The notes: generated from the sequence alone by a model not told the origin. Counted from the stretch's first letter, positions 35,573 to 43,692 are shown. The stretch is DNA of 54,040 nt from Candidatus Micrarchaeota archaeon (GCA_043810635.1 JBDRNY010000021.1:1-54040), one strand, 5' to 3'. Program-made: numbers and translations.

Positions 35573-35709
35573 TGCCAAGGGAGGGATTTGAACCCTCGGC
35601 TTCCAGATTTCTCAGAGAGCCATTATTCATCATTAAGCAAAAATGCTTTCGGCACTCATACGGCTTTGCATATGAGTCTGGCACTCTAACCAAACTGAGT
35701 TACCTTGGC
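35573..35709 (-). tRNA. tRNA-Met (anticodon CAT; elongator type, or Ile2-type CAU) with a 62-nt intron at position 37/38
   Basis: Manual fold on the minus strand: acceptor GCCAAGG/CCTTGGC, D arm ACTC/GAGT, anticodon stem CCAGA/TCTGG with loop CTCATA-[intron 35609-35670]-A, T arm GAGGG-TTCAAAT-CCCTC, discriminator A. The G1:C72 pair and the anticodon stem argue against an initiator. Confidence 0.85.
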
Positions 35710-39271: not shown

Positions 39272-39343
39272 CAATATAGCCCAATTACTTTTTATTTTAT
39301 TGCAACCTATCCTAATTATGGCAAAACATAAGAGGCGAAGATG

Positions 39344-39406
39344 ATGGCAAAACAACAGCAGAAAAGGTTTTGCCAGACTTATCCGGGAAAAAGGAGGATA
39401 AGCTGA
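39344..39406 (+). promoter_or_regulatory. Conserved leader upstream of glyS: 20-codon uORF (MAKQQQKRFCQTYPGKRRIS) containing an 8-bp hairpin
   Basis: The element is 33/36 nt identical to 43097-43132 upstream of rpl7ae. The hairpin is GGCAAAAC (39346-53)/GTTTTGCC (39367-74) with a 13-nt loop. The uORF has its own SD (GAGG, 8-nt spacing), and its TGA overlaps the glyS ATG (TGATG). An 8-codon mini-ORF (39318-39344, MAKHKRRR) precedes it in the same overlapping fashion. Confidence 0.5.
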
Positions 39407-40905
39407 TGGCAAAATTACATGAGAAAATATTGGATATTGCGATTCAGCGGGGATTTCTCATTCCTTCAGCCGAAATTTACAACTCTCCTGCAGGATTTTA
39501 TGATTACGGGCCTGTGGGGGCGGCTGTTAAAAGAAAAATGCAAAATTTGTGGAGAGAATTGTTTGTTTTAAGGCAGGGGTATTTGGAAATTGAAACCAGC
39601 ATAATACTTCCGCATAATGTGTTTGTTGCTTCAGGCCATGCTGCAAATTTCAAGGATTTTATGATTGAATGCAAAAAAGAAAAGAAAAAATTTCGGGCAG
39701 ACAAATTGCTTGAAGAAAAAACAGGAAAAAGTTGGGAAGGAAAGAGTGCCGGGGAAATTGAGAAAGGGATAAAAGAGCATAAAATAAAATGCCCGGATTG
39801 TGAGGAAGAGCTGGCAGATGTTGCTTCTTTTAATTTGATGTTCGGCACAAGGATAGGCAGTGGAAAAGATGATAATGCAAATTTAAGGCCTGAAACAGCG
39901 CAGGGAATATTTCTTGCATTTAAAAGAATATTTGCGCAATACGGGGCAAATCTGCCTGTTGCAATAGCCCAGATTGGAAAATCTTTTAGAAATGAAATTT
40001 CCCCCCGCCAGGGATTGGTAAGGATGAGGGAGTTTACGCAAATGGAATTAGAATATTTTTTTAACCCTAAAAATGACAAAATGGAAGAATTTGAAAAATT
40101 GAAGGAAAAAAAGGTGAGGATAAAGCTTCCTGCAAAGAAAAACGAGGAAGCGAAAATTGAAGAAATAACATTGCAGGAAGGGGTGGAAAAAAAATATTTT
40201 CCAAATGAAATTATGGCAGTAATGATATATTGGCAGCAGGAATATTATGAAAAAATCGGAATTGACAAGAATAAATTTCATTTCAGGATTATGCCCCCAG
40301 AAGAGTTGCCCCATTATTCCAAGGGAAATGTTGATTTGGAAGTGGAGACAAGCTATGGGGTGATTGAAACAGTCGGCACTGCTTATAGGACAGATTTTGA
40401 TTTATCCTCCCATCAAAAGCATTCTAAACAGGAATTGGCTGTGCATGTGCAGGGGGAGGGAAAAATAATCCCCCATGTAATTGAGCCTTCATTTGGAGTG
40501 GACAGGCCGTTTTATTGCATTTTAGAGCATTGCTTTAGGGAGAAGAGCAAGGAAAAGGAGTGGGAATGGTTTGCTCTTCCGCCGTCTATTGCGCCTTATG
40601 TTGCAGGAATATTTCCATTGCAAAAAAAAGATGGATTGCCTGAAATTGCGGAAAAAATTGTGAAAATGCTTCGTGAGGAAGGGATAGATGTTTATTATGT
40701 GAGAACAGGTTCGATAGGGAAGAGATATGCGCGCGCTGATGAAATCGGGGTGCCTTATTGCATTACAATAGATTATGAGAGCAAGGAAAAAAATGATGTT
40801 ACAATTAGGTATCGGGATGACGGGGGGCAGGAAAGAATTGCAATAAGCGAGCTGGCGGGGAAAATAAGAGAATTGGAAAAAGAGGGGAAAACTTCGCTAA
40901 AATGA
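39406..40905 (+). CDS. glyS: Glycine--tRNA ligase (archaeal/eukaryotic-type class II)
   Basis: It contains MAKLHEKILDIAIQRGFLIPSAEIYNSPAGFYDYGPVGAAVKRKMQNLWRE, FRNEISPRQGLVRMREFTQMELEYF and EPSFGVDRPFY. A GGAGG lies 8 nt before ATG 39406. Confidence 0.93.
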   Translation: MAKLHEKILDIAIQRGFLIPSAEIYNSPAGFYDYGPVGAAVKRKMQNLWRELFVLRQGYLEIETSIILPHNVFVASGHAANFKDFMIECKKEKKKFRADKLLEEKTGKSWEGKSAGEIEKGIKEHKIKCPDCEEELADVASFNLMFGTRIGSGKDDNANLRPETAQGIFLAFKRIFAQYGANLPVAIAQIGKSFRNEISPRQGLVRMREFTQMELEYFFNPKNDKMEEFEKLKEKKVRIKLPAKKNEEAKIEEITLQEGVEKKYFPNEIMAVMIYWQQEYYEKIGIDKNKFHFRIMPPEELPHYSKGNVDLEVETSYGVIETVGTAYRTDFDLSSHQKHSKQELAVHVQGEGKIIPHVIEPSFGVDRPFYCILEHCFREKSKEKEWEWFALPPSIAPYVAGIFPLQKKDGLPEIAEKIVKMLREEGIDVYYVRTGSIGKRYARADEIGVPYCITIDYESKEKNDVTIRYRDDGGQERIAISELAGKIRELEKEGKTSLK

Positions 40906-42770: not shown

Positions 42771-42785
42771 TATATTTTTGCAAAT

Positions 42786-42995
42786 GGCCCCCGAGCTGCT
42801 TGCGCTCCCTTAAATGGGAGTGAGGAAGTTCTGTCCACAGCAAATGATAAGCCCTCCGCCTTCAAGGGGCGGAGCCGGGAGCAGAAACGACACCTGTATG
42901 GGATGAAACGGCTCGGCTTTAGAGGGCGGCTGTGCAAGGCATTTATGCCGCGTCAGTCGAATGCAGCTAAAACAGAAGACAGACTATGAGGGGCC
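42786..42995 (+). ncRNA. rnpB: RNase P RNA, compact form (about 210 nt)
   Basis: It is a GC-rich non-coding island. P1 is GGCCCC/GGGGCC, P2 is AGCUGC/GCAGCU and the P3 hairpin is CUCCC-UUAAAU-GGGAG. The CR-I-like GAGGAAGUUCUGUCC pairs with the CR-V-like ACAGAAGACAGACUAU to form a P4 helix with a bulged U. Confidence 0.7.
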
Positions 42996-43096
42996 GTTTG
43001 CACTAAAAATAGCTTTTTAAGCATTCTACCTCTAAATATTTAGTGCTGATTCTTTTAGCATCAGCTATGAACCGATGAAAATTGAGGTGAGCATAT

Positions 43097-43162
43097 ATGG
43101 CAAAACAACAGCAGAAGCGGTTTTGCCAGACATCACCGACGAATGAAATGAGGAGGCGATGA
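43097..43162 (+). promoter_or_regulatory. Conserved leader upstream of rpl7ae: 21-codon uORF (MAKQQQKRFCQTSPTNEMRRR) containing the same 8-bp hairpin
   Basis: This is a near-identical copy of 39344-39379. The hairpin is GGCAAAAC (43099-106)/GTTTTGCC (43120-127). The uORF has its own SD (GAGGTGA, 8-nt spacing), and its TGA ends 2 nt before the rpl7ae ATG at 43165. Confidence 0.5.
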
Positions 43163-43164
43163 AG

Positions 43165-43692
43165 ATGGCAAAAAGCTATGTTAAATACGAAACTCCGAAA
43201 GAAATAGTTGCAAAGGCATTGGAAGCACTGACTATTGCAAATGATTCTGGAAGGGTTAGAAAAGGTGCTAATGAAACAACTAAAGGAATTGAAGCTTCTA
43301 CTTCAAAGCTCGTGCTTATTGCATCTGATGTTGAGCCTGAAGAGGTTGTAATGCATCTTCCTGAAGTGTGCAAGGAAAAAGGAGTGGCATTTGTATATAT
43401 TCCGACAAAAAAAGAGCTGGGCGGGGCTATTGGATTGCCTGTGCCTTGCGCTGCTGCTTCTATTGACAAGCCGGGAAATGCAACAGAAATGGTGAAAACT
43501 ATTGTTGACAAAATTACTCCATTGTGCGGAATAAGCGAGAAAAAGGAAGTGAAGGAGAAAAAGGTTGAGAAAAAAGAAGTTGTGAAGGAAAAAGAGGAAA
43601 AGAAGGAAGTGAAGAAAGAAAAGAAGGGAAGGAAAAAACACCCTAAAAAGGAAAAAAAAGCAGAAGCAAAAAAAGAAGAGGAAAAGAAATAG
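43165..43692 (+). CDS. rpl7ae: Ribosomal protein L7Ae (also a box C/D, H/ACA and RNase P subunit) with a ~55-aa Lys/Glu-rich C-terminal extension
   Basis: It contains VKYETPKEIVAKALEALTIANDSGRVRKGANETTKGIEASTSKLVLIASDVEPEEVVMHLPEVCKEKGVAFVYIPTKKELG. The tail reads EKKEVKEKKVEKKEVVKEKEEKKEVKKEKKGRKKHPKKEKKAEAKKEEEKK. Confidence 0.93.
   Translation: MAKSYVKYETPKEIVAKALEALTIANDSGRVRKGANETTKGIEASTSKLVLIASDVEPEEVVMHLPEVCKEKGVAFVYIPTKKELGGAIGLPVPCAAASIDKPGNATEMVKTIVDKITPLCGISEKKEVKEKKVEKKEVVKEKEEKKEVKKEKKGRKKHPKKEKKAEAKKEEEKK

Follow-up and report, generated by a model that had tools for sequence, protein, structure and literature searches.

MIRUs (mycobacterial interspersed repetitive units) are short non-autonomous repeats that insert at start codons or between the genes of operons, bring a coupled open reading frame (ORF) whose stop overlaps the downstream start (at -4), and can occur in tandem (PMC12548453). 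The bacterial MITE-like palindromes Correia/NEMIS, ERIC, REP/BIME and RPE are likewise small, protein-less, hairpin-forming, dispersed and co-transcribed with genes. L7Ae, for its part, regulates mRNAs through k-turns in their 5' untranslated regions (5'-UTRs) (PMC5539422, PMC6298567). Here we analyzed a stretch of 54,040 nt (the window) from a Candidatus Micrarchaeota archaeon (GCA_043810635.1, JBDRNY010000021.1:1-54040), in which two similar leaders precede glyS and rpl7ae. Both leaders are very probably copies of a small non-coding hairpin insertion element, which has spread in this genome and is patchily distributed among its relatives. This reading is based on insertions into sites that are empty in relatives, a family of repeats, the duplication of target sequence, a covarying stem and a relay ORF that is non-random.

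The host (G000) belongs to the DPANN archaea and is represented by a metagenome-assembled genome of 1.11 Mb in 89 contigs, which is about 82% complete. Related genomes are denoted by other G-numbers and contigs by C-numbers. Copies in the own genome were collected by a hairpin pattern search, and then with the pattern GCC-N-GAC ... G-NN-GA, in which the stem arms had to be complementary. Nine own-genome copies were used to build a covariance model (R1), and a broader covariance model (R2) was used as well. The same-genus relatives (58-84% protein identity to the own genome, with conserved synteny) include G001, G002 and G003, which were compared at glyS. Exact-protein look-ups for near-identical strains gave no match.

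The two leaders share a 35-mer, ATGGCAAAACAACAGCAGAA[AA/GC]GGTTTTGCCAGAC, at 39344-39378 and 43097-43131, which is identical at 33 of 35 positions; judged by shuffled sequences, zero such matches are expected. The initial annotation had placed both copies correctly but given their length as 36 nt. It had also stressed that the two differences are synonymous. Both are, but they affect adjacent bases (AA to GC), maybe represent one mutational event, and carry little weight. The GGCAAAAC/GUUUUGCC hairpin was recovered in the minimum free energy (MFE) folds of both leaders (RNAfold; -25.1 and -25.8 kcal/mol, z = -4.8 and -3.2). Also as annotated, SD-like (Shine-Dalgarno) sequences precede each start, and the upstream ORFs (uORFs) stop at or near the main start, with TGATG at glyS and TGA-AG-ATG at rpl7ae. 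What had been missed is a second, covarying hairpin behind the first at 39378-39402 and 43131-43161, which in the RNAfold prediction for glyS follows directly on the GGCAAAAC/GUUUUGCC hairpin. The features of the glyS leader are as follows.

39289-39301, plus strand: TATA-like A/T-rich box TTTTTATTTTATT, the putative glyS promoter, about 17-29 nt before the first ATG
39318-39344, plus strand: uORF1, MAKHKRRR-stop, with its ATG at the ancestral glyS start position (empty-site alignment)
39332-39344, plus strand: GAGGCGAAGATGA, remnant of a 5'-truncated second element copy within uORF1
39344-39405, plus strand: complete element copy (R1, 67 bits, E 5.6e-14; R2, 57 bits; MFE fold), beginning with the 9-nt direct repeat ATGGCAAAA
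39346-39353 and 39367-39374, plus strand: arms of hairpin 1 of this copy, followed by A-GA at 39375-39377
39378-39384 and 39396-39402, plus strand: arms of stem 2, the loop with GGAGG at 39393-39397, followed by CUGA at 39403-39406
39344-39406, plus strand: uORF2, MAKQQQKRFCQTYPGKRRIS-stop, 20 codons, the relay ORF, whose TGA overlaps the glyS ATG
39406-40905, plus strand: glyS, class II glycyl-tRNA synthetase (Pfam tRNA-synt_2b, HGTP_anticodon)

In G001, G002 and G003, glyS has neither leader nor element: an TTTTTATTTT box is found about 22-25 nt before the ATG. In the window, the first ATGGCAAAA (39318) occupies the place of the relatives' ATG, and is followed by a 5'-truncated unit and then by the complete unit. 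The remnant and the repeat that follows it (GAGGCGAAGATGATGGCAAAA) are identical at 20 of 21 positions to the 3' end of the copy at rps9. The chained MAKHKRRR ORF described in the initial annotation is therefore present and TGATG-linked, but it is made up of the ancestral glyS start and, joined to it, another element copy that lacks its 5' part. The TTTTTATTTTATT box would be the promoter of glyS and the transcript would be leaderless, as suggested by archaeal promoter geometry; an equivalent box stands at equal distance directly before the glyS ATG in the three element-free relatives. Orthologues of glyS begin with MAKL or MQKL at an ATG matching 39406, which shows this ATG, and not TTG 39370, to be the true start. 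The TTG lies in frame 36 nt before the ATG, inside the element, and ORF finders call a 511-aa product from it.

At rpl7ae, the insertion follows a leader that is itself old, and both parts can be recognized.

43045-43096, plus strand: retained ancestral rpl7ae leader, kept in G001, G006, G010 and G005 and partly in G002 and G003
43045-43065, plus strand: hairpin GCTGATT/AATCAGC of the ancestral leader
43084-43090, plus strand: SD sequence GAGGTGA of the ancestral leader
43071-43088, plus strand: k-turn/k-loop-like motif ACC-GAU-GA-AAAUU-GA-GGU, overlapping the SD sequence GAGGTGA
43097-43164, plus strand: 68-nt insertion consisting of one 9-nt repeat and the element (R1, 55.5 bits, E 6e-11)
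43099-43106 and 43120-43127, plus strand: arms of hairpin 1, followed by A-GA at 43128-43130
43131-43137 and 43155-43161, plus strand: arms of stem 2 with one mismatch, GGAGG loop at 43152-43156, AAGA at 43162-43165
43097-43162, plus strand: uORF MAKQQQKRFCQTSPTNEMRRR-stop, 21 codons, beginning at the ancestral rpl7ae start; its TGA is followed by AG and then by ATG 43165
43165-43692, plus strand: rpl7ae, followed by rps28e, rpl24e and ndk (Pfam)

In G001, G002 and G006, a hairpin is followed by ATGAACCGATGA-aatt-GAGGTGAGC, 4-6 nt and then the ATGGCRAAR of rpl7ae. Since the relatives' leader joins the rpl7ae ATG directly, the ATG of the uORF at 43097 corresponds to the ancestral rpl7ae start with its ancestral SD sequence. 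The element was not found upstream of rpl7ae in G001, G002, G006, G010, G005 or G009. By sequence, the motif at 43071-43088 fits the 5'-UTR k-turn published for L7Ae, in which tandem G:A pairs accompany a GAU bulge and the SD sequence lies alongside and is occluded (PMC6298567, PMC5539422). A full hairpin version of this ancestral motif is present in G005. In G003, a different insertion of about 60 nt (ATGGCAAATCCTAAAAGGGTTTGACACGAAGTTGGATGCGCGAAGCGCAGAC...) separates the k-turn region from the SD sequence of rpl7ae, which indicates that the rpl7ae leader was struck independently in another genome.

The same picture was obtained at two further loci. In 8 of 8 relatives, rps9 lacks the element, and the rpl13 stop with the SD sequence (TAGGTGAT) is followed by 4 nt and the rps9 ATG; in the own genome, the element is placed after ATGGCAAAAAAAA. 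The 3' end of pgi is free of the element in 6 of 6 relatives, where the gene ends with ...E[AV]KK[IL]L..stop. The own pgi reads KEAKKLLEKK-stop, followed by a 35-nt core and a second, out-of-frame KAKNLLEKN-stop. The initial annotation had proposed a conserved leader of glyS and rpl7ae and had itself named absence from the orthologous genes of relatives as the finding that would speak against it; this is what was observed, and the proposal has to be given up.

With R1, nine strong hits on seven contigs were obtained in the own genome (E 2e-15 to 6e-11), with nothing else above noise, and R2 added one weak tenth copy on C30, giving ten copies on 8 contigs. The nine strong copies fall into two groups.

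Four gene-start copies: glyS, rpl7ae, rps9 and a basic membrane-protein gene on C28 (C28+); stem 2 loop of 11-25 nt with GGAGG
Five copies at or just behind gene 3' ends: pgi, rnhB, a sugar-phosphate isomerase-like gene and two unknown genes; loop of 3-4 nt

GGAGG-bearing large loops are confined to the start-site copies. The suggested specific link between glyS and the L7Ae operon does not hold, as further copies are placed at the starts of rps9 and the membrane-protein gene and at the 3' termini of pgi, rnhB and other genes. The search for further copies recommended in the initial annotation thus yielded 9-10 copies in the own genome and copies in at least nine other genomes. R1 gave matches in 8 of 61 related genomes and in only 7 of 401 genomes of the phylum, the latter being a sparse and insensitive sample. 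In 20 chosen genomes, R2 detected 15 copies in G054, 10 in G000, 8 in G042, 7 in G050, 4 in G028, 3 in G030, 2 each in G001, G003 and G020, and none in seven genomes. Three tandem 47-nt units precede a gene in G042, and another copy in this genome abuts the 5' end of a tRNA in antisense orientation. ATGGCAAAR is a common gene start in the own genome (136 occurrences vs 21 expected, 68 of which open an ORF of at least 60 codons).

This distribution also bears on the possibility of a purely local duplication or gene conversion between neighboring leaders, with neither a family nor any constraint behind it. The two copies in the window lie only 3.7 kb apart, and their first 35 nt are 94% identical whereas the rest is 55% identical, which suggests local exchange. 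However, the spread of ten copies over 8 contigs, with at least nine other genomes also carrying the element, refutes local duplication as the complete explanation. Covarying stems and non-random relay ORFs speak against it as well, and we consider it extremely improbable; local conversion may still explain the identity of the 5' parts.

Rfam contained no match to the element, either at the gathering threshold or at E <= 1, and a pattern scan of metagenomes returned only chance matches in unrelated high-GC contigs. A published description of such an element was not found; this family of small, target-duplicating hairpin insertions in Micrarchaeota is apparently unpublished.

Alignment of the copies revealed a common layout: target copy 1, the target's initial 7-12 nt once more in inverted form, GA, a stem and loop, NN-GA, and target copy 2. 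In the own genome, the inverted segment is U-rich and the core reads N-GA, C-stem(6)-loop-stem(6)-G, NN-GA. Hairpin 1 is formed by target copy 1 and its inverted copy, and the core stem (stem 2) has 7 covarying base pairs closed by a tetraloop or a larger loop. Family-wide conservation is limited to this GA-stem-NNGA core of about 24 nt. The outer helix, by comparison, differs at nearly every locus (GGCAAAAA, UGAAAAAA, UAGAAAAA, UGGAAAAG, CUGGAGC, CCCCAGC, UGGACAAGUCGG and GAGAAAG).

A check of covariation in the hairpins had been recommended as well, and stem 2 indeed covaries. In the nine own copies, 93% of the cells were paired and the covariation score was 0.343 compared to 0.113 for shuffles; for 20 copies from nine genomes, the values were 94% and 0.479 compared to 0.160, double changes were seen in 10 of 15 pairs, and slid controls scored about 0.1. 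In both sets, none of 500 shuffles reached the score; these figures are inflated, as the copies had been collected with a structure-aware model. At two positions of stem 2, GC, AU, CG and UA were all seen. Most copies close this stem with C:G, the rpl3 copy of G003 closes it with A:U, and U:A is found in G268. One copy, on C32 behind an unknown gene next to EF-1alpha, is common to G000 and G003 and differs by a compensatory change (TTATCC/GGATAA vs TTATTC/GAATAA).

A covarying stem flanked by tandem GA motifs would also be expected of a dedicated cis-regulatory RNA regulon, in which the GA/NNGA internal loop would bind L7Ae or another k-turn-type protein, occlude the SD sequence and the AUG, and so co-regulate translation genes. 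Several observations fit this idea. An alternative fold, in which the U-run and A-run of the outer helix are involved, pairs the main AUG and half of the SD sequence; start-site copies are found at the translation genes glyS, rpl7ae and rps9 and at rpl3 of G003; the orthologous copy on C32 and in G003 keeps its stem by compensatory change; and L7Ae is known to act on 5'-UTR k-turns (PMC5539422, PMC6298567). However, the bulge of the element comprises 2 nt (CU, AA, CA, UA or CG), a k-turn needs 3, and the closing pair covaries and hence cannot supply a loop base. Half of the copies are located at gene 3' ends or antisense by tRNA genes, with no SD sequence or AUG; the orthologous leaders of relatives lack the element; rpl7ae already possesses a conserved k-turn leader upstream; and no Rfam family was matched. 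We therefore regard such a regulon as unlikely. A canonical k-turn within the element was rejected for the same reasons of geometry, although tandem GA pairs are possible.

The comparison with the autoregulatory k-turn of L7Ae (Daume et al. 2017; Huang, Ashraf and Lilley 2019) leads to the same distinction. The ancestral leader at 43071-43090 fits this system, whereas the element resembles it in having tandem GA motifs beside an SD sequence and an AUG but has a distinct sequence with a 2-nt bulge, is not conserved before rpl7ae of the relatives and sits at unrelated genes. A box C/D sRNA (no RUGAUGA box, no Rfam match) and hammerhead or other ribozymes (core motifs absent, no Rfam match) were also rejected as identities of the element.

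For the flanks, we compared the 40 nt before the inverted segment with the 40 nt after the core, within and between loci. Alignment scores within loci were 22-28 (glyS, C28+, rps9, C32 and pgi) compared to 14.6 +/- 4 between loci. The direct duplicate is between 9 and about 30 nt long. Duplicates at gene starts span the ATG and a few codons, and those at 3' ends span the last 5-9 codons and the stop (pgi, rnhB, C32, G028 and G268). For example, the two flank copies read RQKKLGDF-stop and RQRKISDF-stop at rnhB, and YGKKKKK-stop and DGKKKKKK-stop at C32. In the own genome, the downstream flank copies have diverged, unlike hairpin 1. In some copies, no more than 4-9 nt are common to the element's upstream repeat and the native flank, and the upstream copy is foreign to the locus: that of rpl7ae equals that of glyS, and a G001 copy has a perfect 12-bp hairpin 1 yet shares only TGGA with its gene.

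Duplicated gene ends raise the question of an intervening element at the RNA level, in which the unit and one repeat copy would be excised like an intron while both flank copies are used and selected. If the unit were removed between its direct repeats, the gene would be restored in every case. At 3' ends, the stops of the two flank copies are aligned and have been kept, and of the codons in which flank copies differ, about half do so synonymously. The geometry of the aligned copies is nevertheless incompatible with a bulge-helix-bulge (BHB) intron, which has two 3-nt bulges on opposite strands at its boundaries with a 4-bp helix between them. Here, GA and NNGA face each other with no such stagger, stem 2 runs without interruption, and the junctions are direct repeats, which cannot pair mutually. 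GCCAGAC is common to the element and the intron of the nearby tRNA(CAU), but the BHB of that intron is formed by other bases. In addition, no ribozyme or intron family was matched, the tRNA-adjacent copies are antisense to the tRNA, and the relay-ORF signal implies translation of the unspliced form. Excision at the RNA level is thus very unlikely.

Start-site copies were classified as relays when the ORF from the old start either remained open to a stop that overlaps the rebuilt ATG or lies no more than 3 nt from it, or was fused to the gene in frame. A relay was found in 6 of 7 independent copies (glyS, rpl7ae, rps9, G003 rpl3, G001 and G050), the exception being C28+. When the interiors were shuffled with lengths kept, the chance was 0.04-0.46 per copy; for 6 or more of the 7 copies jointly, it was about 5e-4. 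TGATG occurs at glyS (twice, at 39342-39346 and 39404-39408), rps9, G003 rpl3 and G001, TGA-AG-ATG at rpl7ae, and ATGA in the G042 array. The stop UGA is composed of the conserved NNGA and the TG of the start codon, and GGAGG, which occupies the loop and the 3' strand of stem 2, precedes the rebuilt ATG by 7-8 nt. In an archaeon, overlaps of the TGATG and ATGA type were reported to couple genes strictly by termination-reinitiation, to which the SD sequence contributed to a variable extent (PMC6728339). Of the translational-coupling device postulated in the initial annotation, the chained uORF and overlap architecture stands as non-random, and coupling is plausible; a dedicated conserved leader it is not. 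The coupling may be better understood as a survival feature of the insertion.

The relay could work as follows. As the target is duplicated, one side of the insertion keeps an intact version of the struck gene end. A displaced start codon, with its former SD sequence or leaderless 5' end, persists upstream as a uORF, and the element supplies a new GGAGG and a UGA overlapping the rebuilt ATG. Ribosomes from the old start would traverse the insert, melt the hairpins and re-initiate on the gene; direct SD-dependent initiation at the rebuilt ATG is a further possibility. For glyS, the relay would run from a leaderless, 5'-terminal AUG via two short ORFs. For rpl7ae, the old L7Ae k-turn would act on the uORF, and feedback would reach rpl7ae only via coupling. 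In essential genes, only insertions that kept the relay, the sense orientation and the SD sequence would have survived. Coupling with re-initiation, a leaderless glyS mRNA and persisting L7Ae feedback are thus predictions from the sequence.

At glyS, rps9, rpl7ae and rpl3, about 60-90 nt of structured RNA now separate the gene from its former leaderless or SD-led start. The persistence of these essential genes speaks for functioning termination-reinitiation relays in these organisms, and the inserts offer compact natural coupling modules. The rpl7ae locus, where the k-turn feedback now lies before a uORF, offers a testable case of regulation relayed via coupling. For annotation, repeated leaders with coupled uORFs in DPANN/Micrarchaeota can be insertion scars, and gene starts are easily mis-called, as for glyS at TTG 39370.

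The relay ORFs could themselves be taken for a conserved micropeptide (MAKQQQKRFCQT...), another suggestion made initially. The two copies in the window encode identical first 12 residues, and both nucleotide differences are synonymous, but these are adjacent bases. The copies at rps9, C28+ and G001 read the conserved TTTTGCCAGAC in another frame (FLPD vs FCQT; FLPDFA...), the rpl3 copy of G003 gives MAKKKIAFCQNYPTNRRII, and the 3'-end copies have no such ORF. As the family reads its conserved bases in two different frames, we give a functional micropeptide next to no credence.

Translation in frame was seen in two other places. The own copy at C6:5786-5840 extends the C-terminus of a protein by about 20 residues, and the G050 copy on C20 adds 17 N-terminal codons. 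Bacterial MITE-like palindromes are sometimes located in frame inside genes as well.

By analogy, the closest described system would be the MIRUs, the likeness being one of mode of operation. The element is archaeal and has a covarying hairpin with GA/NNGA flanks, an inverted and a long direct target duplicate, and locations that include gene 3' ends and tRNA gene ends. MITE-like palindromes differ in that the element has no conserved terminal inverted repeats, its outer helix is locus-specific, and in place of a short target site duplication of fixed length it has a long one of varying length (9-30 nt); a classical MITE was rejected on these grounds. REP elements make no target duplication, and a repeat derived from REP/RAYT or IS200/IS605 was rejected because target duplications are present and there is no co-occurrence with Y1 (HUH) transposases. 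Integrative elements targeting tRNA genes or gene ends resemble the element in that the struck gene end is present twice and the gene stays intact; here, however, the unit is about 60 nt long, there is no integrase and no fixed att core, and an extra inverted target copy is present.

Candidates for the mobilizing activity were considered individually. A Y1 transposase (IS200/IS605) was present in 6 of 17 genomes tested, with no match in G042 (8 copies), G050 (7 copies), G001, G003 or G268; G004 has Y1 and lacks the element, and no element-like ends were found at Y1 genes. Cas1 (casposase) is absent from the own assembly and occurs in other genomes both with and without the element. A pre-existing guide sequence that chooses the target is unlikely, as the inverted segment is locus-specific and matches the local flank. 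In the own genome, a partial IS200/IS605-type Y1 gene is located at the end of a contig (C44:2760-2993), with no element copy nearby.

Known transposition chemistry does not explain a direct and an inverted target duplication around a tiny conserved hairpin. We lean, tentatively, towards copying at the DNA level by template switching or by staggered cleavage with fill-in. Replication or repair might give occasion for template switching, be it from an existing copy to a site of microhomology or by fold-back on the nascent strand. It could result in variable duplications, foreign upstream flanks, tandem arrays and a within-genome preference for GGCAAA-type sites, and leaves copies with unrelated flanks not obviously accounted for.

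Several points weigh against a simple insertion element. No mobilizing enzyme was found, with only Y1_Tnp and Cas1 screened among transposase families. The relatives are distant (58-84% protein identity), so that the insertions could be old. In the own genome, hairpin 1 is perfect (8-12 bp) in the copies that have one, and the C12 copy has no 5' arm. The downstream flank copies, although apparently unused, have at 7 of 8 loci retained a stop codon that is aligned with the other one but differs from it in kind. The kept compensatory copy, the perfect hairpin 1 and the kept stops suggest constraint or function after insertion over pure selfish DNA. Finally, the glyS and rpl7ae copies are mosaic, with 33 of 35 positions identical in the 5' part and 18 of 33 in the 3' part. 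Simple copy-and-paste does not explain this mosaic, which suggests local conversion or that the element moved with its previous flank.

It is conceivable, if rather doubtful, that the insertion element represents an undescribed class of archaeal (DPANN) mobile DNA, with a core hairpin of about 24 nt, no enzyme gene, and direct and inverted target duplicates that rebuild gene ends. If so, its copying route (hairpin template switching or an unknown host nuclease/ligase) would be unlike described transposition mechanisms. In a bolder variant, the downstream flank copies that keep their stops may still be used, and the unit may be removable at the RNA or DNA level.

Arrays of the element were also observed. 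In G054, perfect 47-nt tandem arrays of at least 4 copies lie at contig ends beside a tRNA gene (C7:12800-13121 and C15:231300-231582), with hairpin 1 arms that equal the tRNA acceptor-stem sequence (CUGGAGC/GCUCCAG). The contigs probably end there because the assembly failed on these arrays.

An archaeal RNase P RNA was detected at 42783-42998 on the plus strand, where it immediately precedes the rpl7ae leader (Rfam RF00373; 70 bits, below the gathering score of 84, E 4.5e-18, with only about 216 nt covered). The RNase P RNA sequence cagactatgaggggcc is also found before rpl7ae in G001, G002, G003 and G004. L7Ae is a subunit of RNase P in archaea, which makes this synteny suggestive.

Upstream of glyS, a tRNA(CAU) gene is located at 35573-35709 on the minus strand. 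It contains a 64-nt intron at the canonical position and was missed by ARAGORN; an intron-bearing tRNA(CAU) is also found upstream of glyS in G001. The intron has a box C/D-like AUGAUGA ... CUGA and may encode a methylation guide.

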